Sequence record: MN894885.1
Reading direction: 5' to 3' (one strand)
Source: Escherichia phage Ec_Makalu_001
Length of the DNA stretch: 64,000 nucleotides
Below the pieces are notes generated by a model, which had not been told where the DNA came from, made no database searches, and saw only the letters and a program-made list of their open reading frames with translations. How positions within the stretch are numbered: the first letter of the stretch is position 1; each line of letters begins with the position of its first letter. Below are positions 28,743-40,607 of the stretch, piece after piece. The position numbers were made by a program, and so were the translations under genes.

Positions 28743-29912
28743 TTACCAATCAATCTTATCAGCCGGAATAAGTTTCTTATAATTCCGTAGATAGTAAGTT
28801 TTCATTGAATCCAGAATACGGTCATAATCAAGGCCATCAAATGCAATCATCAGACACATGAAAATATATGCTTGTGCATCACCATGTTTACGTGATTCGA
28901 TAGTCGCATTTGATGCATATGTCTTTCTGTCTTCTCCAGCGTGTGCGTTATAAAATTCTGTTGCTGTCGTGAAGGCATTGCGAAGAATAGACCTGAATGC
29001 TTCCTCGAATAGCTCGATTCGTTCCAGTGCTCCCGGTTCGCCTTCATATGCAGCACGCAAATCATCGGTTTCGCTTTCTACGACATAGTAGATCAAGTTA
29101 TTAGGAAACATCGATGTATTTTTAATGTTATGCACACCAATATACCATTCACTTTTCACCTTGAACATCTGTCCGTCTTTGGTTCGTGCAACAATTCCTT
29201 CGATACCTTCTGCGGTCCGAACTTCGTCAAGAATATTGCCAAAACGCGCTGAATCAACCTGTAACGCATTTACCAGATGAGGACGTAGGATTGCGTCAGC
29301 AAATAGCATTTGATGCGGTACGTACTCTCCTGTGACGTTATGGCGTACATTCAGAAGTGTTAGCGACGGTTCAGAATATTCTACAACAATTCGGTTGCTG
29401 GGTGCTGTATATTCAAAGTTGAAAGTATAATCAGATCCAATATCGGCGATCTTAGCACGTAGTTCCGCATACTTCTCTGAATACAGAAGACCGTTTGCTC
29501 TCTCTGCCTGGCTTGAGTACAAGGCCGCTTTAGACTTCAACTGAACATAGCCGTTATCAATGTATGTGCTTACTAGACTACCGTCCATTTTGTCCATGAC
29601 CATTTCCACATCTTCCGGCTTAAAGCGAGCGCGATCATTCTCGCCTAAATTAAAAAACTTCTCCATAGGACGAGATGCAATGCGGACCGGACGACCTTTA
29701 TCGTCAATTTCAAACATGATCCCGCGACACTCTAACGCATCTGGTTTATTCCACATTTCCGGTTTGCTCAAGTACAGATAGCTAAAAATGCGCATACGGG
29801 TTTGCATCGCCGTAATTTCATCTTTGTAATAGAACGTATCAGATCCGTCACATAGTGCCATCAGATTTTTGAACAATGCTAAAACTTTTTTGTTGTTTTC
29901 TTTTGTTGACAT
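28743..29912 (-). CDS. rnlA: RNA ligase 1
   Basis: 389 aa; strong similarity to T4 Rnl1 (DALECRGIMFE, RIASRPMEKFFNL, KxDGSLVS). Confidence 0.85.
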   Translation of the reverse strand: MSTKENNKKVLALFKNLMALCDGSDTFYYKDEITAMQTRMRIFSYLYLSKPEMWNKPDALECRGIMFEIDDKGRPVRIASRPMEKFFNLGENDRARFKPEDVEMVMDKMDGSLVSTYIDNGYVQLKSKAALYSSQAERANGLLYSEKYAELRAKIADIGSDYTFNFEYTAPSNRIVVEYSEPSLTLLNVRHNVTGEYVPHQMLFADAILRPHLVNALQVDSARFGNILDEVRTAEGIEGIVARTKDGQMFKVKSEWYIGVHNIKNTSMFPNNLIYYVVESETDDLRAAYEGEPGALERIELFEEAFRSILRNAFTTATEFYNAHAGEDRKTYASNATIESRKHGDAQAYIFMCLMIAFDGLDYDRILDSMKTYYLRNYKKLIPADKIDW

Positions 29913-30309
29913 AATTTGTGTTCCATTCTGGTTTAAATTTGGTGATCAAAACAGGTTCTTCGATATCGGCAGTGCTTATAATATCCTTACCCGTTGGATT
30001 CTCAATATATAACTCAAAGCACTGGCGGTAATAGAATGTTACTGTCTTACCTTCCTCTAGCGCCTTATGAATATTCTTACTCTTGCGAGTATCCGCTGTT
30101 GGTGTTTGTCTGTTAATGCTAGTCCGATAATAATTGATCCTCTTTCTGAGATTGACAGTCTGACCAATGTATACCAGTTCATCATCAACCGCAATAGCGT
30201 AAAGAACGTTTAAACGGTTCTTCTGAGGAGGCAGAATCACATCACCATCTTTACACTCTAAACATGAATATTTAACGAATCCATAGTTTTCTATTAGCTC
30301 ATTAACCAT
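29848..30309 (-). CDS. denA: endonuclease II (GIY-YIG family)
   Basis: 153 aa; near-identical core to T4 DenA (NVLYAIAVDDELVYIGQTVNLRKRINYYRT). Confidence 0.85.
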   Translation of the reverse strand: MVNELIENYGFVKYSCLECKDGDVILPPQKNRLNVLYAIAVDDELVYIGQTVNLRKRINYYRTSINRQTPTADTRKSKNIHKALEEGKTVTFYYRQCFELYIENPTGKDIISTADIEEPVLITKFKPEWNTNYVNKRKQQKSFSIVQKSDGTM

Positions 30310-31652: not shown

Positions 31653-32129
31653 TTAATCATGACCGTGGTTGGCAAGATCCGCTCGTGTCTTATCTTTGTG
31701 ATTTCCTACGTCAAAGACACGATAGCCGTTTTCTCGGAGAACTTTAATCACTTCTGGGTTATCCTCAAAGACTCCCACCACTTCATCTTTATCAAATGAT
31801 TTAATTACCTCTAATTTGATGTGATAGTCTTTACGGGAATCGGTACGGCCTCTCATAAAGATTTTATCAAAACGCACCCCGTTAGAAATTAACCAATCAA
31901 TTGTTTCCATGTAAGCATGTGAACTTCGTCCGGTGAGGATGTAAATCAAATGACCGTTGTCCGAAAGAGCATTGATAACACGAATTACATCGTAAATGGG
32001 GGAATCTCCCCCACATGCCTTGTTATATTCGATCCATGACTCGACTTTATCAAGATTTTCGGTTGGCATCTTTGCTAGTCGATGCGTTGGATCTGTGATC
32101 GTAAAATCTAAATCGACAAAATATATCAT
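31653..32129 (-). CDS. HAD-like phosphatase
   Basis: 158 aa; N-terminal DxD-type motif FVDLDFTIT and GR-type motif ILTGRS; coupled to nrdB. Confidence 0.45.
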   Translation of the reverse strand: MIYFVDLDFTITDPTHRLAKMPTENLDKVESWIEYNKACGGDSPIYDVIRVINALSDNGHLIYILTGRSSHAYMETIDWLISNGVRFDKIFMRGRTDSRKDYHIKLEVIKSFDKDEVVGVFEDNPEVIKVLRENGYRVFDVGNHKDKTRADLANHGHD

Positions 32130-33286
32130 AGATATTTCCCGAATCGGTTGTAGTCGTCGTCTGTTAAATCGGTATTAACCTGAGATACCAGATACATAAT
32201 CTCTACTTCTTGCGCCGCGTTTTGAACTTCGTCAGAGTTTAACCACTTACGCATCCACGGTAAAGGATGACGACGAACACTAAACGGGCTTTTCAGTCCG
32301 GCAGCACGCATACGGGAATCTGCCAGGTATTCTACATAGGTTTTCAGAATTTCCGGTGACAGGTTAGGAATTGCCCCCATTGCGAATAAGTGATCTACCC
32401 ATTCTTTTTCTTGCTCGACAACATCCAGAAAGATTTTCGTTGCTTCGTCTTCAAGTTCTTCCGCAATCTGTTTCCACTCATCACCATCAGCCCCCGTTTG
32501 CCATTGACGAATAATGTATTGTGTTCCTTTTAAGTGAAGTTGTTCATCACGCGCAATAAATTTCATGATCTTCGCGTTACCTTCCAGTAAACCACGTTCG
32601 GCAAAGCTGAAAGTACATGCAAAGGACACATAAAAACGGATTGCTTCCAAAGCATTAACGCAGTGTGCACACAGATAAATCGACGCCATCAGATCTCGTT
32701 TTGTATCTTCAAAAACTCTTCTTGCATCATCTAATGCTGTCTGGTCGTCTCGTTCTTCCCAATAGCGGAGATCTTCTTTTGCGTTCTCATACTTACGAAT
32801 CCAATAAAGAACATCATCATAATATTGCCCGATAGATTCCGCTCGCTTCATGATAGCAGGGTTATCGATGATCTGGTCAAACTCACTAGCCGGATCAATG
32901 AAACAGTTACGCATAATGTGAGTATAACTGCGGCTATGAATTGTCTCGCTGAATGTCCAGGTTTGTAACCATGTATCGAGAGTTGGATCAGATACAATTG
33001 GACCAAATGCTGCGGACGGTGCGCGACCTTGAATAGAATCAAGTAATGTCTGATACTTCAAGTTTTCTGTAAAGAAACGTTTTTCAACATCGCCCATATT
33101 CAGATATTGAATGCGGTCGGTTGCAAGTGAAATCTCTTCTGGACGCCAGAAAAATGACAGAGATTTTTCAATTAATTCTTCAAATACTTGATGACGCTGA
33201 ATGTCATAGCGAGCAATCCCTAAATCACTACCCAGAAACATTGGTTCGTTCATAATATCAACATGTTCGCGGTTAAATACGCTCAT
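32126..33286 (-). CDS. nrdB: ribonucleotide reductase small subunit (class Ia beta)
   Basis: 386 aa; di-iron ligand regions and C-terminal tail typical of NrdB; uninterrupted ORF. Confidence 0.9.
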   Translation of the reverse strand: MSVFNREHVDIMNEPMFLGSDLGIARYDIQRHQVFEELIEKSLSFFWRPEEISLATDRIQYLNMGDVEKRFFTENLKYQTLLDSIQGRAPSAAFGPIVSDPTLDTWLQTWTFSETIHSRSYTHIMRNCFIDPASEFDQIIDNPAIMKRAESIGQYYDDVLYWIRKYENAKEDLRYWEERDDQTALDDARRVFEDTKRDLMASIYLCAHCVNALEAIRFYVSFACTFSFAERGLLEGNAKIMKFIARDEQLHLKGTQYIIRQWQTGADGDEWKQIAEELEDEATKIFLDVVEQEKEWVDHLFAMGAIPNLSPEILKTYVEYLADSRMRAAGLKSPFSVRRHPLPWMRKWLNSDEVQNAAQEVEIMYLVSQVNTDLTDDDYNRFGKYL

Positions 33287-33301
33287 TAATTCACCTCACT
33301 A

Positions 33302-33469
33302 TCACTTTTTAATACAAAAGAACTTAGTATTTCTGTTTATGTCTCTATCCTGTTGCAATTCCTGCATGGCTTCAAAACAACTTTGATGTGATGAAAACTC
33401 TACGCTGGTAACAGTTCCTTTATTATATACCCCGACACTAACGGAAAGCAATAACCATAATGTAGCCAT
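33302..33469 (-). CDS. small hydrophobic-N-terminus protein (55 aa), tandem paralogue 1
   Basis: Manual ORF MATLWLLLSVSVGVYNKG...; TAATG start/stop overlap with paralogue 2. Confidence 0.35.
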   Translation of the reverse strand: MATLWLLLSVSVGVYNKGTVTSVEFSSHQSCFEAMQELQQDRDINRNTKFFCIKK

Positions 33470-33642
33470 TAGTTCACCTTCTGCTTTTCAATGCAATACA
33501 GATTCATAAAGCGTTTATTGTCTTCGCGGATAATCTCGCGAGCTTTAACGCAATCCTGCTTTGTTGCAAACTCAATGCTTGACATATTTCCGTAATTATA
33601 CATTGAATTGCTTATTGCAATCAATAACCATACAGTAGCCAT
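33469..33642 (-). CDS. small hydrophobic-N-terminus protein (57 aa), tandem paralogue 2
   Basis: Manual ORF MATVWLLIAISNSMYNYG...; TAATG overlap with upstream 76-aa ORF. Confidence 0.35.
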   Translation of the reverse strand: MATVWLLIAISNSMYNYGNMSSIEFATKQDCVKAREIIREDNKRFMNLYCIEKQKVN

Positions 33643-33872
33643 TATCCGACAACCTCAAAACATTTATCATCAGGAAGAATAGCCCATTCTACGCCGTATT
33701 CATCCTTAACGTAGTAGCAAGTCCCATCATGTCGAGCATCATATTCATCACCGACAACAAAGCTATCAGCTAGCTCAAAATCTACAGCAACACATTTTAA
33801 TTTTGCCATAATAAAATCCTCATTTGTTTTTGATGGTTGCATTATAGCGGGGATTTCTCCCCGCGTCAACAC
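33642..33872 (-). CDS. hypothetical protein (76 aa)
   Basis: ORF with promoter (TTGACG - palindromic spacer - TATAAT) at ~33845-33875. Confidence 0.4.
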   Translation of the reverse strand: MLTRGEIPAIMQPSKTNEDFIMAKLKCVAVDFELADSFVVGDEYDARHDGTCYYVKDEYGVEWAILPDDKCFEVVG

Positions 33873-33877
33873 TTATT

Positions 33878-36132: not shown

Positions 36133-36435
36133 TCATATATCAAGCGTATTTTCTGGAGTATCGCCGAAAACTCTATTAACGAGATCCGCCAATACTTCAC
36201 CGTGGCATTTCTTAGGGTAGCAAGTACAACCTAAGCGCATATGTCTTAATACTTCTAAATGCGCCCGTGTTATCTCACCATTTCGAATCTTATTATACAA
36301 CCACTCTTTGTATAATGCAATAGCTTTCTCTCGTCCGTATTCTTTGGCGGTGTATGGATTTCCCCACATAGTACCACGCTGAATATTAACATCAAAATCG
36401 CTATTGTATTTGTTTACAACGCGGCATATTTTCAT
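36133..36435 (-). CDS. hypothetical protein (100 aa)
   Basis: ORF between td and nrdA; Cys/His cluster CTCYPKKCH. Confidence 0.4.
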   Translation of the reverse strand: MKICRVVNKYNSDFDVNIQRGTMWGNPYTAKEYGREKAIALYKEWLYNKIRNGEITRAHLEVLRHMRLGCTCYPKKCHGEVLADLVNRVFGDTPENTLDI

Positions 36436-36471: not shown

Positions 36472-37704
36472 TTATACTGCCATTTGAGCGGTGATTGCCG
36501 GATGGCTTTGATAGTTGTGAATTTTAAAGTCTTTCGGAGTTTTTGTCAATACCTCATCTAAAGATTTAAATTCCGGCAACTCAATTGTTGGTTTATCAAA
36601 CGGAACACGGCTTAACTGTTCCATCACTTGGTCAAAGTGATTTTTGTAAATGTGAGTATCTCCGCCGGAGAAAATCAGTTCTCCTACTTCGAGATCACAC
36701 ATTTTCGCTATGATGTGAGTTAACAGCGCATAGCTGGCGACGTTAAAGGGCAAGCCCAAAAAGCTGTCTACGCTTCGCTGAAACCACATACAAGACAGTT
36801 TACCCTCATTGACATAGAATTGCACGAACGGATGACATACACCTAATACAGCATTATGTGTTCCTTGTACGTTCCATGAGTCAATGATGATACGTCGATC
36901 CGTTGGATTGTTTTTAATTTGTTCAATCACGTTTTGTAACTGGTCTTCCCAAATCTTCGGGCGATAGACATATTCTTCATCGTCTTTAGTGCTCGATGTG
37001 TCTATGTCCATACTAGCAAAGATCGTGGTATCTGGCGCTAAAATATCCCCGCCTAGATAATCACTATCAAGCAGATAACCGAAATAACCATCATCTACCC
37101 ATTCCTGGAATCCCCACAAGCAATATGCATCATTAACAAAATTAGATTGAGTCTTCCAGTGGTCTGCTACTAAGAATTGATTATATTCAGAATCAAACTC
37201 TTCATAACGCATACCACGCCAGATAGCACATAAACGGTCTTCTGTGTCGTTGGTTGGCGTAAAGTCTTCTACCCACGGGTGTTTAAATGTATGTGTATAT
37301 TTGCTCTTAACGCGCTTAATTTTGATTTCACCGTGTGGATGAATCGGTTTGCGTCGCCACGCCATACCATACATATTGCCGACATTATAACCATTGAATC
37401 GCAAGGGATTCTTTTCTTTCATATCAAGACAGTTGCCGCGCCAAATATCAAATGCTTCCTCGTCAAACTTTCCGCGTGTAATTTCCTGTAAGCGACGGCG
37501 GTCAAGTGATCCCTCCATAAACCATAGCAATTCGCCAATTACAGAGGCTGTAGCCATCTTTTTAGTGGTCAGTAATGGGAAACCCTTGCTTAAATCAATT
37601 CGCATCTCTGTGCCGAATTTAGAGAGCGTACCTACCCCCGTTCGGTCTTCACGAGGCCAGCCATTATCAAGAACATCACGCAATAGTTTCAAATATTCTT
37701 TCAT
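36472..37704 (-). CDS. td: thymidylate synthase with large internal insertion
   Basis: 410 aa; N- and C-terminal thirds align to ThyA/T4 Td (DRTGVGT, catalytic Cys in LGVCHPFVQFY, LGLPFNVASYALL, C-terminus PKDFKIHNYQSHPAITAQMAV); ~120 extra residues between WRRKP and DRRIIIDSWN. Confidence 0.8.
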   Translation of the reverse strand: MKEYLKLLRDVLDNGWPREDRTGVGTLSKFGTEMRIDLSKGFPLLTTKKMATASVIGELLWFMEGSLDRRRLQEITRGKFDEEAFDIWRGNCLDMKEKNPLRFNGYNVGNMYGMAWRRKPIHPHGEIKIKRVKSKYTHTFKHPWVEDFTPTNDTEDRLCAIWRGMRYEEFDSEYNQFLVADHWKTQSNFVNDAYCLWGFQEWVDDGYFGYLLDSDYLGGDILAPDTTIFASMDIDTSSTKDDEEYVYRPKIWEDQLQNVIEQIKNNPTDRRIIIDSWNVQGTHNAVLGVCHPFVQFYVNEGKLSCMWFQRSVDSFLGLPFNVASYALLTHIIAKMCDLEVGELIFSGGDTHIYKNHFDQVMEQLSRVPFDKPTIELPEFKSLDEVLTKTPKDFKIHNYQSHPAITAQMAV

Positions 37705-39383: not shown

Positions 39384-40607
39384 TTACGCTGTCAACTCTT
39401 TTTCAAAAGATTTTACGATATACATGATAGTGCTCAATTCAGACGGCGCTACTGTTTCGGTGTAGCCATCCGGCATATCTTCTTTCGAGATATAGGAAGT
39501 CTTGCCTTTCATCGCTTCCTTGATCTTGTTCTCTAATTCTAAGATCTTTTGACCGTCTTGTAAAGTCAATTCATAAAAGATCTCGTGACCGAACTTTGAA
39601 ACACGAGATTGGTTTCTCATGCGCTCATGTGTTTCTTTGTTTGTTATTCCAAATTTCACGCCAACAAAGGAATCATTGTTGGTTAATTTCTGTATATAAA
39701 GAGTTCCTGTCTTTAATGCCTGATAACCATGCTTAGAACACAACGGGCAGCGTGTTCCGCGATTAACAAAATTATCAATAGTTACATCCCATTCATGGTT
39801 ACGTTCGCATGTCAGAAGTATTCTTGTTAATGCACCTTTCCACTTTCCTGAAATCCCAATAAATTTTAGTCTGTTGGTTTCGCATATTTTTTCAATTTGT
39901 TTTAATCGGTCACTTTTTGTTATTGGTGCTGTTCCGCTACATTTGCGACACCGACGACCTAGTTTGAACTTATCATAACTTTGTTCGTAAATGTGATTAT
40001 TAGGACACTCAAATTTAAGTTTAGTTTTTGTTCCTCTCCATTCCCCAATTATACCCAAAAATTTATAATCTCCTTTATTTTCATTTATATAAGATAAGGA
40101 ATCTTCTTTATCATGCATCTTGCCCCCGTTACATAAAGGACATCTTGTTTTTTGATGAATGAAATCTGTATATGTTGGTTGGTATGTGTGTCCGTTTGTA
40201 CAGTTCATAATGAGTCTTGTTCTGCTATTTTTATACTCCCCACCAACAAAACCAACAAATACATCGTTTGTTTCTTGTTTTATTCTTTCTATCACATTGT
40301 TTGGGTTTAATCTTTGAGAATCAACCACACATTTCTTACACGAAACTTTTTTCCTGATATTTGCTAGAGTTGATGTGTATTCATGCTTGTTATTACATAA
40401 TATAAGAGCTTTTGTTTTGAGACCAGACCATTCTCCAACAAACCCCATGAAAGAATAACCAACTTCCAAACATGAATTTTTTACAACATTTTCCCAATAG
40501 AAGGGAGTTTTCGTGTTTCCTTTTATTTCTATACGAATCTCATGTGCTTGACGTACTAACATATTTTTATCCTCCGTTGTTTCGATGTGTGTATTATACA
40601 TTACCAC
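39384..40607 (-). CDS. protein with four tandem zinc-ribbon modules and C-terminal GIY-YIG-like (T5orf172-type) domain; putative homing-endonuclease-like
   Basis: 407 aa; four ~55-aa repeats each F/I-x-G-x-x-G-E/K-W ... C-x-x-x-H ... C-x-x-C; C-terminus LYIQKL...VGVKFGITNKETHERMRNQ. Confidence 0.45.
   Translation of the reverse strand: MVMYNTHIETTEDKNMLVRQAHEIRIEIKGNTKTPFYWENVVKNSCLEVGYSFMGFVGEWSGLKTKALILCNNKHEYTSTLANIRKKVSCKKCVVDSQRLNPNNVIERIKQETNDVFVGFVGGEYKNSRTRLIMNCTNGHTYQPTYTDFIHQKTRCPLCNGGKMHDKEDSLSYINENKGDYKFLGIIGEWRGTKTKLKFECPNNHIYEQSYDKFKLGRRCRKCSGTAPITKSDRLKQIEKICETNRLKFIGISGKWKGALTRILLTCERNHEWDVTIDNFVNRGTRCPLCSKHGYQALKTGTLYIQKLTNNDSFVGVKFGITNKETHERMRNQSRVSKFGHEIFYELTLQDGQKILELENKIKEAMKGKTSYISKEDMPDGYTETVAPSELSTIMYIVKSFEKELTA

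Follow-up and report, generated by a model that had tools for sequence, protein, structure and literature searches.

An in-frame endonuclease-like domain, probably defunct and reduced, in the thymidylate synthase of Escherichia phage Ec_Makalu_001

Introduction

The td gene of Escherichia phage Ec_Makalu_001 (MN894885.1) lies within the 64,000-nucleotide stretch of DNA analysed here (the window) and encodes a ThyA-type thymidylate synthase with 146 more residues than the E. coli enzyme. An earlier note, made from the letters of the window, ascribed the extra length to an in-frame insertion of about 120 residues between the WRRKP and DRRIII segments and suggested either a domain added to the enzyme or an in-frame mobile element that had become fossilised. 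This raises the question of what the segment is, whether it stays in the enzyme and whether it still serves a purpose. Full-text searches of the openly accessible literature returned no description of the td insert.

Results

The td gene encodes an apparently intact enzyme with a 125-residue insert

Analysis of the gene revealed a single continuous open reading frame of the 410 residues already noted, on the minus strand, which had been left unstated. The gene was divided into the following features:

36472..37704, minus strand: td, coding sequence of the ThyA-type thymidylate synthase, 410 codons plus stop (open reading frame list and Pfam PF00303)
37330..37704, minus strand: N-terminal ThyA core, aa 1-125, ending with the outgoing strand of the native hairpin, WRRKPIHPHG (alignment to E. 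coli ThyA)
36955..37329, minus strand: inserted domain, aa 126-250 (125 aa), a putative reduced core copy of a phage endonuclease-like family (family HMM, tblastn and AF2)
36472..36954, minus strand: C-terminal ThyA core, aa 251-410 plus stop (alignment to E. coli ThyA 110-264)
36835..36837, minus strand: codon for Cys290, the catalytic nucleophile, which corresponds to Cys146 in E. coli (motif position and invariant alignment column)

Td residues 2-410 matched positions 1-266 of the 266-position PF00303 profile with an E-value of 1.5e-84, above the curated cut-off. Alignment to the solved E. coli ThyA paired Td 1-82 with residues 1-82 and Td 254-410 with residues 110-264; WRRKP, PHGE, DQLQNV and DRRIII lie at positions 116, 123, 254 and 269, and Cys290 sits within LGVCHPF. 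The N- and C-terminal parts thus match ThyA, catalytic cysteine included, as had been claimed. We also checked the ThyA catalytic, dUMP and folate set (E. coli numbering R21, E58, W80, R126, R127, C146, H147, R166, S167, D169, N177, H207 and Y209), and all catalytic and dUMP-binding residues were present in Td. In the N-terminal core R21, E58, W88, Y112, W116 and R117 are invariant in 22 ThyA proteins, and in the C-terminal core R270, C290, H291, R310, S311, D313, N321, H351 and Y353 are invariant in the ThyA alignments, with R271 nearly so. From this conservation and a dN/dS of 0.03-0.05 in the core, Td looks intact as a working thymidylate synthase. The annotated gene of Ec_Makalu_002 is 99.7% identical to Td, the td gene of RB49 is homologous, and the frd-td-nrdA-nrdB array was identified in 58/58 Krischvirus genomes and one distant T4-like contig. 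A gene for an endonuclease-like protein with a CapR domain is located 1.7 kb upstream of td.

Matching WRRKPIHPHG to WRAWPTPDG and IWEDQ to RHIDQ of E. coli ThyA placed the insert between the equivalents of G106 and R107, at the tip of hairpin 101-109. It spans aa 126-250, inside the interval noted earlier; about 21 of the extra residues fall outside it (aa 65-87, +8; aa 88-109, +10; and elsewhere). Its composition was as described, rich in Trp, Tyr and Asp (W+Y+F 16.9%, net charge -11), and its GC content of 0.41 compared with 0.41-0.44 in the rest of td carries no foreign base-composition signature. The earlier note had named a sequencing frameshift as another source of the extra length. Alignment with related td genes showed no frameshift: all 58 Krischvirus (RB49-like) records carry full-length td, at 1221, 1224, 1233 or 1236 nt, with RB49 also at 1233 nt. 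Since all length variants differ by whole codons and 58 independent genomes agree, the insert is not a sequencing artefact, and the frameshift was rejected.

The extra segment has no features of an intein or intron

Because T4 td has a group I intron and inteins are known from phage nucleotide-metabolism enzymes, the segment could in principle be an unrecognised intein or in-frame intron that is removed before the enzyme works. We consider this barely credible. A search of Rfam at the gathering threshold gave no match anywhere in the 64-kb window, including to the group I intron model Intron_gpI, and no Hint or intein Pfam domain was matched in short or long inserts. The junctions (...PHG|E... 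and ...RPKI|WEDQ...) showed no conserved Cys, Ser or Thr nucleophile and no His-Asn among 22 aligned insert-bearing proteins, which agrees with the reported lack of intein-like boundaries, and the long inserts of other ThyA proteins were likewise devoid of intein or intron features. Furthermore, in the predicted models the two ends of the insert pair into a beta-stalk that extends the native hairpin, and selection is seen at the protein level, with indels in codon multiples only. It had also been claimed that neither td nor nrdB contains a group I intron or homing endonuclease. The intron half stands, given the continuous reading frames (nrdB, 32126..33286, is uninterrupted) and the null Rfam result; the endonuclease half stands for a separate gene only, as the insert itself appears to descend from such a protein.

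The insert is predicted to fold as its own domain

AF2 modelling of full-length Td (pLDDT 94.2, pTM 0.92) and of the insert alone (pLDDT 92.8) predicted with high confidence that the insert forms its own folded domain on a two-stranded stalk, which answers a check proposed in the earlier note. The following parts were distinguished:

37093..37248, minus strand: helical part of the insert, aa 153-204 (AF2 helices 153-169, 181-193 and 199-204; conserved-column table)
37180..37191, minus strand: loop aa 172-175, SEYN (alignment of ten Krischvirus Td proteins; pLDDT)
37012..37077, minus strand: beta-hairpin, aa 210-231, YLLDSDYLGGDILAPDTTIF (AF2 strands 210-213 and 228-231; column table)
36946..36972, minus strand: returning stalk strand, aa 245-253, YVYRPKIWE, paired with aa 119-130 in the model (AF2 strands 119-130 and 245-253)

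The helical part retains the hydrophobic residues of the endonuclease-like family described below (W162, M165, V179, W183 and the Phe of SNF) together with the Asp of NDA and L-W-G-F-Q-E-W. The SEYN loop is the sole low-confidence stretch of the insert, where the pLDDT of 10-residue blocks falls to 75 for full-length Td and to 68 for the insert modelled alone, and is absent from JSE, GEC-3S, JK32 and Phi1 among the ten aligned proteins. The hairpin is a degenerate form of the family motif L-D-K-D...Y-S-P-x-T-C-x-F...N, and the V-x-R-P-x-I motif of the returning strand is common to nearly all insert-bearing ThyA proteins.

The insert belongs to a family of putative homing endonucleases

A family HMM built solely from 51 free-standing proteins, with ThyA inserts left out, matched Td aa 125-245 at 35.8 bits (E 1.4e-10), and this was its sole match among the 408 open reading frames of the window. 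With the same HMM, scores were 112-156 bits for long ThyA inserts, 45-138 for mid-size ones and 22-44 for other short forms, and a Klebsiella phage insert used as tblastn query matched the insert region of Krischvirus td at E 2e-11. Long ThyA inserts were matched by the PHROGs families phrog_2081, 953, 374 and 3377, annotated 'HNH endonuclease' (E 1.7e-33 for phrog_2081, up to 1e-8). Scored directly against PHROGs, the Krischvirus insert gave a weak match to phrog_2081 alone (E 0.38), and its link to the family became clear only via the longer inserts. A Foldseek search of viral models returned insert-bearing ThyA and proteins named 'HNH homing endonuclease'. No match was obtained in a Pfam scan of the Krischvirus insert or in an NCBIfam scan of the long inserts and free-standing relatives, and a PDB sequence profile search with the domain alignment gave glutamate-receptor matches at chance level only. 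Taken together, homology of the insert to a family of putative homing endonucleases annotated 'HNH endonuclease' is well supported by these sequence comparisons. The two earlier suggestions both hold, the added domain through its separate predicted fold and the fossilised mobile element through the match to the family HMM.

Relatives were found by tblastn in 1153 phage records. The free-standing members are proteins of 170-300 aa in which a beta-rich N-terminal part (F-x-x-T-G-Y ... K-D ... G-V-G-Y-x-G) precedes a helical-plus-hairpin core with invariant R-C-Y, D-K-D, Y-S, T-C and N, often followed by a C-terminal NUMOD-like, AP2 or HTH module. An I-HmuI NUMOD-like domain was identified at the C-terminus of 14/60 free-standing members (residues 206-247 of P0233, E 1.2e-8; the Sophrita protein, E 9e-8), and this predicted modular architecture matches that of homing endonucleases. 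Free-standing genes lie between nrdA and nrdB, between ribonucleotide reductase and dUTPase genes, or beside primase or DNA polymerase, where homing endonuclease genes are usually located. Two peptide patterns from long inserts, run against 185,579 bacterial and archaeal reference genomes, identified one locus, in Fictibacillus, and no ThyA-embedded copy; because these patterns are narrow, this offers no more than a weak hint that the family is confined to phages.

ThyA inserts of different sizes share one site

Most ThyA proteins have a hairpin of only 2-30 aa at the insert site. Fuller in-frame copies of 170-285 aa occupy this hairpin in 67 or more diverse ThyA clusters. In a tree of the ThyA core, Krischvirus Td falls within a clade whose members all carry inserts of 124-265 aa, beside 245-aa forms, and this placement indicates that the Krischvirus short form is a reduction of a longer insert. 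Other ThyA lineages are reduced to different sizes (141 and 170-195 aa). Outside the main clade, ThyA proteins with an insert are interspersed with others that have none. In one case P0024, with a 278-aa insert, and P0056, which has none, have cores that are 91-93% identical and collinear flanking DNA; that such related phages differ in carriage, like the scatter in the tree, would be indirect evidence of homing.

We also weighed the opposite direction, in which the domain arose as an elaboration of ThyA and was later released as free-standing genes. The number of ThyA-embedded copies is in its favour, as they make up 67/146 of the best representatives, although the ranking used a ThyA-insert profile that biases the top of the list towards ThyA copies. 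The family as a whole, however, reaches 9703 representatives at E<=1e-3. Among the best 146, those outside ThyA are mostly short, and in free-standing members the domain is joined to NUMOD-like, AP2, HTH and GIY-YIG modules. These data, the scatter of insert-bearing proteins and the short hairpin of most ThyA proteins make a ThyA origin highly improbable.

The Krischvirus insert has lost family residues and positive charge

In the family HMM, the window insert spans positions 48-176 of 241, compared with 4-203 for long ThyA inserts. The C-terminal module is missing, and the conserved N-terminal columns are gaps or mismatches. The family residues R, C, K, Y, S, C and N, conserved at 92-100% in free-standing proteins and 57-96% in long inserts (68-96% for those of the hairpin motif), are replaced or deleted in Krischvirus. 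R and C are missing from the window Td, which has S214 in place of K, L222 in place of Y, A223 in place of S, T227 in place of C and Asp in place of N, so that D213, D215 and T226 are the only survivors of the polar motif, while the column table shows the hydrophobic core residues retained. The charge has also switched: the Krischvirus insert has a pI of 4.8 and a net charge of -15 in its globular part, compared with a pI of mostly 8.3-9.6 for long inserts and a median of 9.1 for free-standing proteins.

Within Krischvirus, one recombinant block was identified directly beside the insert:

36649..36939, minus strand: mosaic block, aa 256-352, directly downstream of the insert (Krischvirus alignment, dS)

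In JSE, GEC-3S, KFS-EC and Skers this block is swapped for a divergent allele with about 44 amino-acid differences and saturated dS, compared with a dS of 0.1-0.3 in the flanks. Such a block and the homology to putative homing endonucleases could point to an insert that is still an active site-specific endonuclease, making Td a bifunctional protein that spreads its own allele. The loss of the invariant polar residues and of both flanking DNA-binding-type modules speaks against this, as does the strongly acidic character of the domain. The insert is also fixed, being present in 58/58 genomes, which leaves the genus without an empty target site. We hold continued cutting to be very improbable.

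The insert has a dN/dS of about 0.21 compared with 0.03-0.05 in the enzyme core, and its indels are whole-codon only, values that indicate that it is still under purifying selection. That selection could be read as a sign of new use, with the insert kept because it might offer a docking surface to other members of the phage dNTP-synthesis complex, regulate Td or act as a DNA-mimicking decoy. The short form persists, in the same gene order, in lineages that are just 51-62% identical overall, the acidic switch is consistent across the Krischvirus group, the LWGFQEWVD motif is conserved in ThyA-embedded copies and not in free-standing ones, and the pTM of the full model suggests a fixed orientation to the core. 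However, non-synonymous change is 4-5 times faster in the insert than in the core, with insert identity down to 39% where the core is at 63-65%; the varied sizes of the reduced forms look like repeated erosion, not convergence on one unit; and no search indicated a partner or ligand. New use is an unlikely explanation, though one to be kept in view.

Discussion

The data are best accommodated if the insert is a defunct endonuclease domain in a working, unspliced Td, reduced from a complete in-frame module, which we judge to be probable. An ancestor in the ThyA lineage would have gained a complete endonuclease-like module in frame at the tip of the hairpin (E. coli 101-109), an insertion that we attribute to homing by a protein that presumably had nuclease activity. 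Because the ends of the module meet, they would have formed a two-stranded stalk, and the enzyme could tolerate the module without intron or intein splicing; Td would thus be translated as one unspliced chain of 410 aa. In the Krischvirus lineage a module of about 245 aa would then have been cut back to about 125 aa. The beta part at its N-terminus and the DNA-binding part at its C-terminus would have gone, together with its positive charge and most of the invariant polar residues, with the hydrophobic scaffold left. The present-day insert is most likely no longer a nuclease or DNA binder. It may have been retained because clean deletions seldom occur and misfolding of the insert would harm an essential enzyme.

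Homing endonuclease genes are not known to persist in essential genes other than via self-splicing introns or inteins, or intergenically. In Td a module of the free-standing type appears to sit unspliced within the polypeptide of an essential enzyme, and dozens of divergent phage thymidylate synthases share the hairpin site, with contents that range from near-complete copies down to the 125-residue relic. We tentatively propose that the long inserts (about 245-285 aa) may represent a fourth lifestyle of homing endonucleases in essential genes, in which a complete, in-frame and unspliced module still cuts insert-less thyA and copies itself in, and of which Krischvirus Td would be the eroded end state, its acidic scaffold perhaps reused for docking or as a decoy; we regard this as possible and somewhat less than likely. 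The inserts offer a natural size series in which tolerance, decay and perhaps reuse of a selfish element inside a protein can be followed, and a site on the ThyA surface with room for up to about 285 residues would be useful for protein engineering. The insert also explains the 'hypothetical protein' labels that several genome records put on these long genes, such as those of Klebsiella phage phiKp_21 and Krischvirus Whisky, Cognac and Brandy.

Several known systems resemble Td in part. The group I intron of T4 td encodes I-TevI, a GIY-YIG endonuclease, and is spliced from the mRNA. Krischvirus td shares with it the colonisation of the same gene by a homing-endonuclease element in a T4-type phage; unlike T4 td, it has no intron, the element is of a different protein family and the extra sequence is kept in the predicted mature protein. 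Mini-inteins are likewise in-frame, endonuclease-bearing insertions in conserved enzymes from which the endonuclease was then eroded, whereas the Td insert has no Hint domain, no junction nucleophiles and no predicted excision, and would be a permanent surface appendage. The nrdA gene of Aeromonas phage Aeh1 is reportedly split by the free-standing endonuclease gene mobE with the enzyme still functional (work of Friedrich and colleagues from 2007). There too an endonuclease gene of the free-standing type has invaded the coding sequence of a phage nucleotide-metabolism enzyme, but the product is two separately translated pieces, whereas Td is one polypeptide with an internal endonuclease-like domain.

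Two other ThyA elaborations bear comparison. Lactobacillus casei ThyA has a 50-residue insert that our alignment places about 15 residues upstream of the Td site, before G-x-x-Y-G, and identity of the two sites was rejected on this alignment. Both inserts add residues to the same variable, surface-exposed region of the ThyA small domain, but the L. casei insert has no endonuclease homology. Many ThyA proteins of 299-304 aa carry a hairpin extension of 25-33 aa, two strands with no domain, at the exact site entered at its tip by the large inserts; these extensions are more likely a native extended hairpin that the inserts entered than insert remnants.

The closest known counterparts are the IPA-HNH genes of ICP1-like phages, which are putative homing endonucleases (Barth, Dunham and Seed 2023, PMC10448857), and the PHROG families 2081/953/374/3377. 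Like the family described here, these proteins have an atypical N-terminal domain that is missed by Pfam HNH models, followed by a C-terminal AP2 or NUMOD-like module, and their genes are free-standing neighbours of essential genes such as those for DNA polymerase and ribonucleotide reductase. In ICP1, a member of our family directly follows the gene for DNA polymerase, a position that fits the published gp59; Pfam identified no AP2 domain in it. Our family and the IPA-HNH class are probably the same or close to each other. The IPA-HNH genes are separate, whereas the Td module is an in-frame fusion within the enzyme and, in Krischvirus, appears stripped of its flanking modules and polar residues.

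An in-frame insertion in thymidylate synthase

The window belongs to a Krischvirus (RB49-like, T4-type) coliphage, and Ec_Makalu_002 is 99.7% identical to it over 2.2 kb around td. The gene array comprises frd, small ORFs, td, a DUF4326 gene, nrdA and nrdB, with td located as follows.

36472..37704, minus strand: td, thymidylate synthase (ThyA-type), 410 aa

The Pfam thymidylate synthase model matched Td residues 2-410 over the entire profile (E 1.5e-84). Alignment to the solved ThyA paired Td residues 1-82 with E. coli ThyA 1-82 and residues 254-410 with 110-264, and all catalytic and substrate-binding residues were invariant. Pairing of 'WRRKPIHPHG' with 'WRAWPTPDG' and of 'IWEDQ' with 'RHIDQ' placed the insert at aa 126-250 (125 residues), at the tip of the hairpin made by E. 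coli ThyA residues about 101-109; the other ~21 extra residues are small expansions outside it. The earlier note had described a 410-aa ORF with an in-frame insertion of ~120 aa, and no group I intron in td or nrdB, and this description held: the td ORF is continuous, the nrdB reading frame is uninterrupted, and no Rfam match was reported at the gathering threshold in the whole 64-kb window. Removal of the insert by splicing seems very unlikely. An artefact as the source of the extra length was ruled out, as td of RB49 is also 1233 nt and the gene is full-length in 58/58 Krischvirus records at 1221, 1224, 1233 or 1236 nt, such that every variant differs by whole codons.

Structure prediction, proposed in that note as a check, supported a folded insert. 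An AlphaFold2 model of Td built on a 46-sequence alignment gave a mean pLDDT of 94.2 and a pTM of 0.92, with every segment at least 50; the insert modelled alone reached pLDDT 92.8 and is thus predicted to be a folded domain. In the Td model, strands at aa 119-130 and 245-253 lengthen the native hairpin into a stalk, which bears three helical segments (153-169, 181-193 and 199-204) together with a small beta-hairpin (strands 210-213 and 228-231). The sole soft spot of the insert was the loop around aa 170-176, from which four residues (SEYN) are missing in 4 of the 10 Krischvirus genomes compared.

Relationship to an endonuclease-like family

The insert alone matched nothing in Pfam and gave a weak PHROGs match to phrog_2081, 'HNH endonuclease' (E 0.38); its link to an endonuclease-like family came from homologues found with the whole protein. 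Searching 5.8 billion proteins with Td revealed a long ThyA series of 401-418, 469-476 and 505-613 aa, including a 517-aa protein of Klebsiella phage phiKp_21 named 'hypothetical protein'. The extra residues were all at the same hairpin and could be aligned with each other and with the window insert. These long inserts (about 242-285 aa) matched phrog_2081 at E 1.7e-33 and also phrog_953, 374 and 3377, all 'HNH endonuclease'; no Pfam or NCBIfam family was matched.

When one long insert was compared with 50,697 phage genomes by tblastn, 1153 records matched, among them the Krischvirus td genes (E 2e-11). Free-standing matches included a gene between nrdA and nrdB in Escherichia phage VEcB (matches of this type are about 220-270 aa), one in Bacillus phage Sophrita flanked by dUTPase and a gene for ribonucleotide reductase, genes adjoining or overlapping primase annotations in Vibrio phages, one about 700 bp upstream of a thymidylate synthase gene in Vibrio phage 11895-B1, and one immediately after DNA polymerase in ICP1. 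An HMM of 241 positions, built solely from 51 free-standing proteins, matched window Td at aa 125-245 (E 1.4e-10), its sole match among 408 window ORFs. A Foldseek search of viral structure predictions with the insert model recovered insert-bearing ThyA, 'HNH homing endonuclease' and 'homing endonuclease' proteins.

In the smallest free-standing members (167-180 aa), an N-terminal part rich in beta structure (F-x-x-T-G-Y ... K-D-P ... G-V-G-Y-x-G) is joined to a core whose pattern is nearly invariant, W-x-x-M-x-x-R-C-Y ... Y ... V ... W ... F-x-x-F-x-x-D ... L-D-K-D ... Y-S-x-x-T-C-x-F ... N. A C-terminal I-HmuI NUMOD-like domain was present in 14 of 60 members, and others carried NUMOD1, AP2 or HTH modules, resembling modular homing endonucleases in which a nuclease domain is paired with DNA-binding modules. 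The family fits the 'IPA-HNH' class described in ICP1-like phages by Barth, Dunham and Seed, with an N-terminal domain too divergent for Pfam HNH_3, recognised by profile-profile search alone and followed by AP2; as its authors note, experiments have yet to verify homing for the ICP1 genes (PMC10448857). The family and this class may be identical, although Pfam found no AP2 in the ICP1 family member. In P0182, a 700-aa metagenomic protein outside the window, a GIY-YIG nuclease domain precedes four tandem repeats of the module's helical half (K-T-P-I-Y-x-x-W ... C-x-R-W-x-x-F ... P-Y-S-K-x-N-C-x-W), an arrangement suggesting that the half module can serve in repeated form as a DNA-binding unit.

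Distribution of the ThyA insertion

An insert profile searched against 1.84 billion cluster representatives matched 9703 proteins at E<=1e-3 and 2240 at E<=1e-10. ThyA sequence flanked the domain, or adjoined it in fragmentary proteins, in 67 of the 146 best of the 9703 matches (typically 450-580 aa in total), a proportion biased upwards by a profile made from ThyA inserts. That the family arose within ThyA, as such a count might suggest, seems very unlikely.

Isolated phages with a long-insert ThyA are the jumbo phages KP13-7, UE-S1 and ph0011 and the phiKp_21 record; jumbo phages Muenster and CMSTMSU have ThyA cores 61-65% identical, without an insert. In a neighbour-joining tree of 138 cores, one clade was insert-bearing throughout (124-137, 141-142, 170-195 and 225-265 aa), with the Krischvirus group nested in it beside 245-aa forms. 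Outside that clade, ThyA proteins with inserts of 253-281 aa were scattered among insert-less ones. The clearest case was a pair of proteins from phage contigs sharing gene order, P0024 with a 278-aa insert and P0056 without, whose cores are 91-93% identical; their DNA is collinear at 77-81% identity except at one place, where 850 nt in one stand in for 92 nt in the other. The insert is also shared, at 55% identity, by a third relative, P0025, with a core 79-85% identical, so that insert presence is out of step with the core tree. Such a pattern is compatible with gain or loss of the insert through recombination, as a mobile element would be expected to show, and is short of proof of homing. 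Several records, among them those of phiKp_21, Escherichia phage ph0011 and Krischvirus Whisky, Cognac, Brandy and pEJ01, name long td genes 'hypothetical protein'; automatic annotation scores are presumably lowered by the insert.

Reduction and decay of the Krischvirus copy

Compared by sequence, the Krischvirus insert reads as a reduced, decayed version of the module. The free-standing HMM covered about positions 4-203 of 241 in the long inserts (112-156 bits), compared with 48-176 in the window insert (35.8 bits; 22-34 bits in its closest relatives), where neither the N-terminal beta part nor the C-terminal segment is left. The polar residues R, C, K, Y, S, C and N, 90-100% conserved in free-standing proteins and 57-96% in long ThyA inserts, were deleted or replaced in the Krischvirus insert (K by S214, Y by L222, S by A223, C by T227 and N by D); the hydrophobic or structural residues W162, M165, V179, W183, F, D, L, G, W, T226 and F229 were kept. 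The isoelectric point was 4.8, versus a median of 9.1 for free-standing proteins and mostly 8.3-9.6 for long inserts, and the globular part has a net charge of -15. It is very unlikely that an insert which retains the scaffold and has lost these residues is still active as a nuclease. A short form with the same gene order is likewise found in a T4-like contig of 169 kb, the Td of which has only about 51% identity, indicating that the reduction is old.

Across ten Krischvirus genomes the pooled dN/dS of the insert was about 0.21 (individual pairs 0.15-0.32, from small per-pair counts, 4-11 for non-synonymous and 6-12 for synonymous differences), and that of the Td N-terminal core and C-terminal tail 0.03-0.05. 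The insert is not drifting freely. Its selection and conservation are compatible with the main alternative, a new role gained by the acidic scaffold, which we regard as unlikely. We consider it probable that Td is a single unspliced chain, a normal ThyA carrying an endonuclease-like relic with its DNA binding and cleavage features lost. An endonuclease-like module would have entered ThyA in frame at the hairpin tip, where its ends could pair as a stalk, so that neither intron nor intein was needed, and would since have been deprived of features expected for DNA binding or cleavage. Translation would yield one unspliced chain working as a normal ThyA; no catalytic or substrate-binding residue varies, and strong purifying selection acts on the core. 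The insert probably persists because clean deletion is rare and misfolding harmful to an essential enzyme.

Neighbouring features

A recombinant block (36649..36939, td aa 256-352) covers the Td catalytic centre and starts five codons past the insert. In JSE, GEC-3S, KFS-EC and Skers it is replaced by an allele that differs at about 44 amino acids and whose synonymous divergence is saturated, between flanks nearly identical to the window (dS 0.1-0.3), and a metagenomic relative, P0002, has a third allele. No donor of the block was found, the best matches being no more than 69-79% identical. Three further ORFs were noted.

36133..36435, minus strand: DUF4326 gene, 100 aa (Pfam E 6.5e-23), between nrdA and td
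39384..40607, minus strand: CapR-type ORF, 407 aa, four CapR homology domains (E 1.3e-29) and a DUF4379 treble-clef zinc finger
29848..30309, minus strand: marginal GIY-YIG ORF, 153 aa, 22.7 bits (cut-off 22.6)

The DUF4326 gene is present in a few Krischvirus genomes (Makalu_002/003, SSG23, SFHK24, E26 and LF73P4) and at the same position in L014, a distant T4-like contig; RB49 and about 50 further genomes of the genus lack it. The CapR-type ORF, whose position in RB49 is annotated as an 'endonuclease' gene, is a homing-endonuclease-like gene 1.7 kb upstream of td, of a family different from that of the insert. The GIY-YIG ORF overlaps the start of the adjoining 389-aa ORF (28743..29912) and is perhaps a small endonuclease gene of the seg-like type. 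The gap between nrdA and nrdB (33287..33877, about 590 nt), where T4 and some other phages have a homing endonuclease gene, contained no ORF of at least 90 aa and no Rfam match.

Comparison with known systems

The insertion site belongs to the variable 'small domain' region of ThyA; by alignment, the 50-residue insert of L. casei ThyA presumably lies at a different site. A full-text literature search, largely of journals open without subscription, found no description of the Td insert. The Krischvirus copy itself would be a relic, and of greater interest is the broader pattern, in which many phage ThyA proteins hold apparently complete, unspliced endonuclease-like modules at a single hairpin. 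I-TevI and its intron in T4 td share the host gene and the theme, but Krischvirus td is without splicing. Inteins are alike in their in-frame position and erosion, whereas the Td insert has no splicing domain. The closest precedent known to us is Aeromonas phage Aeh1, in which the free-standing endonuclease gene mobE reportedly divides nrdA into two genes; in Td, the outcome is a single polypeptide.
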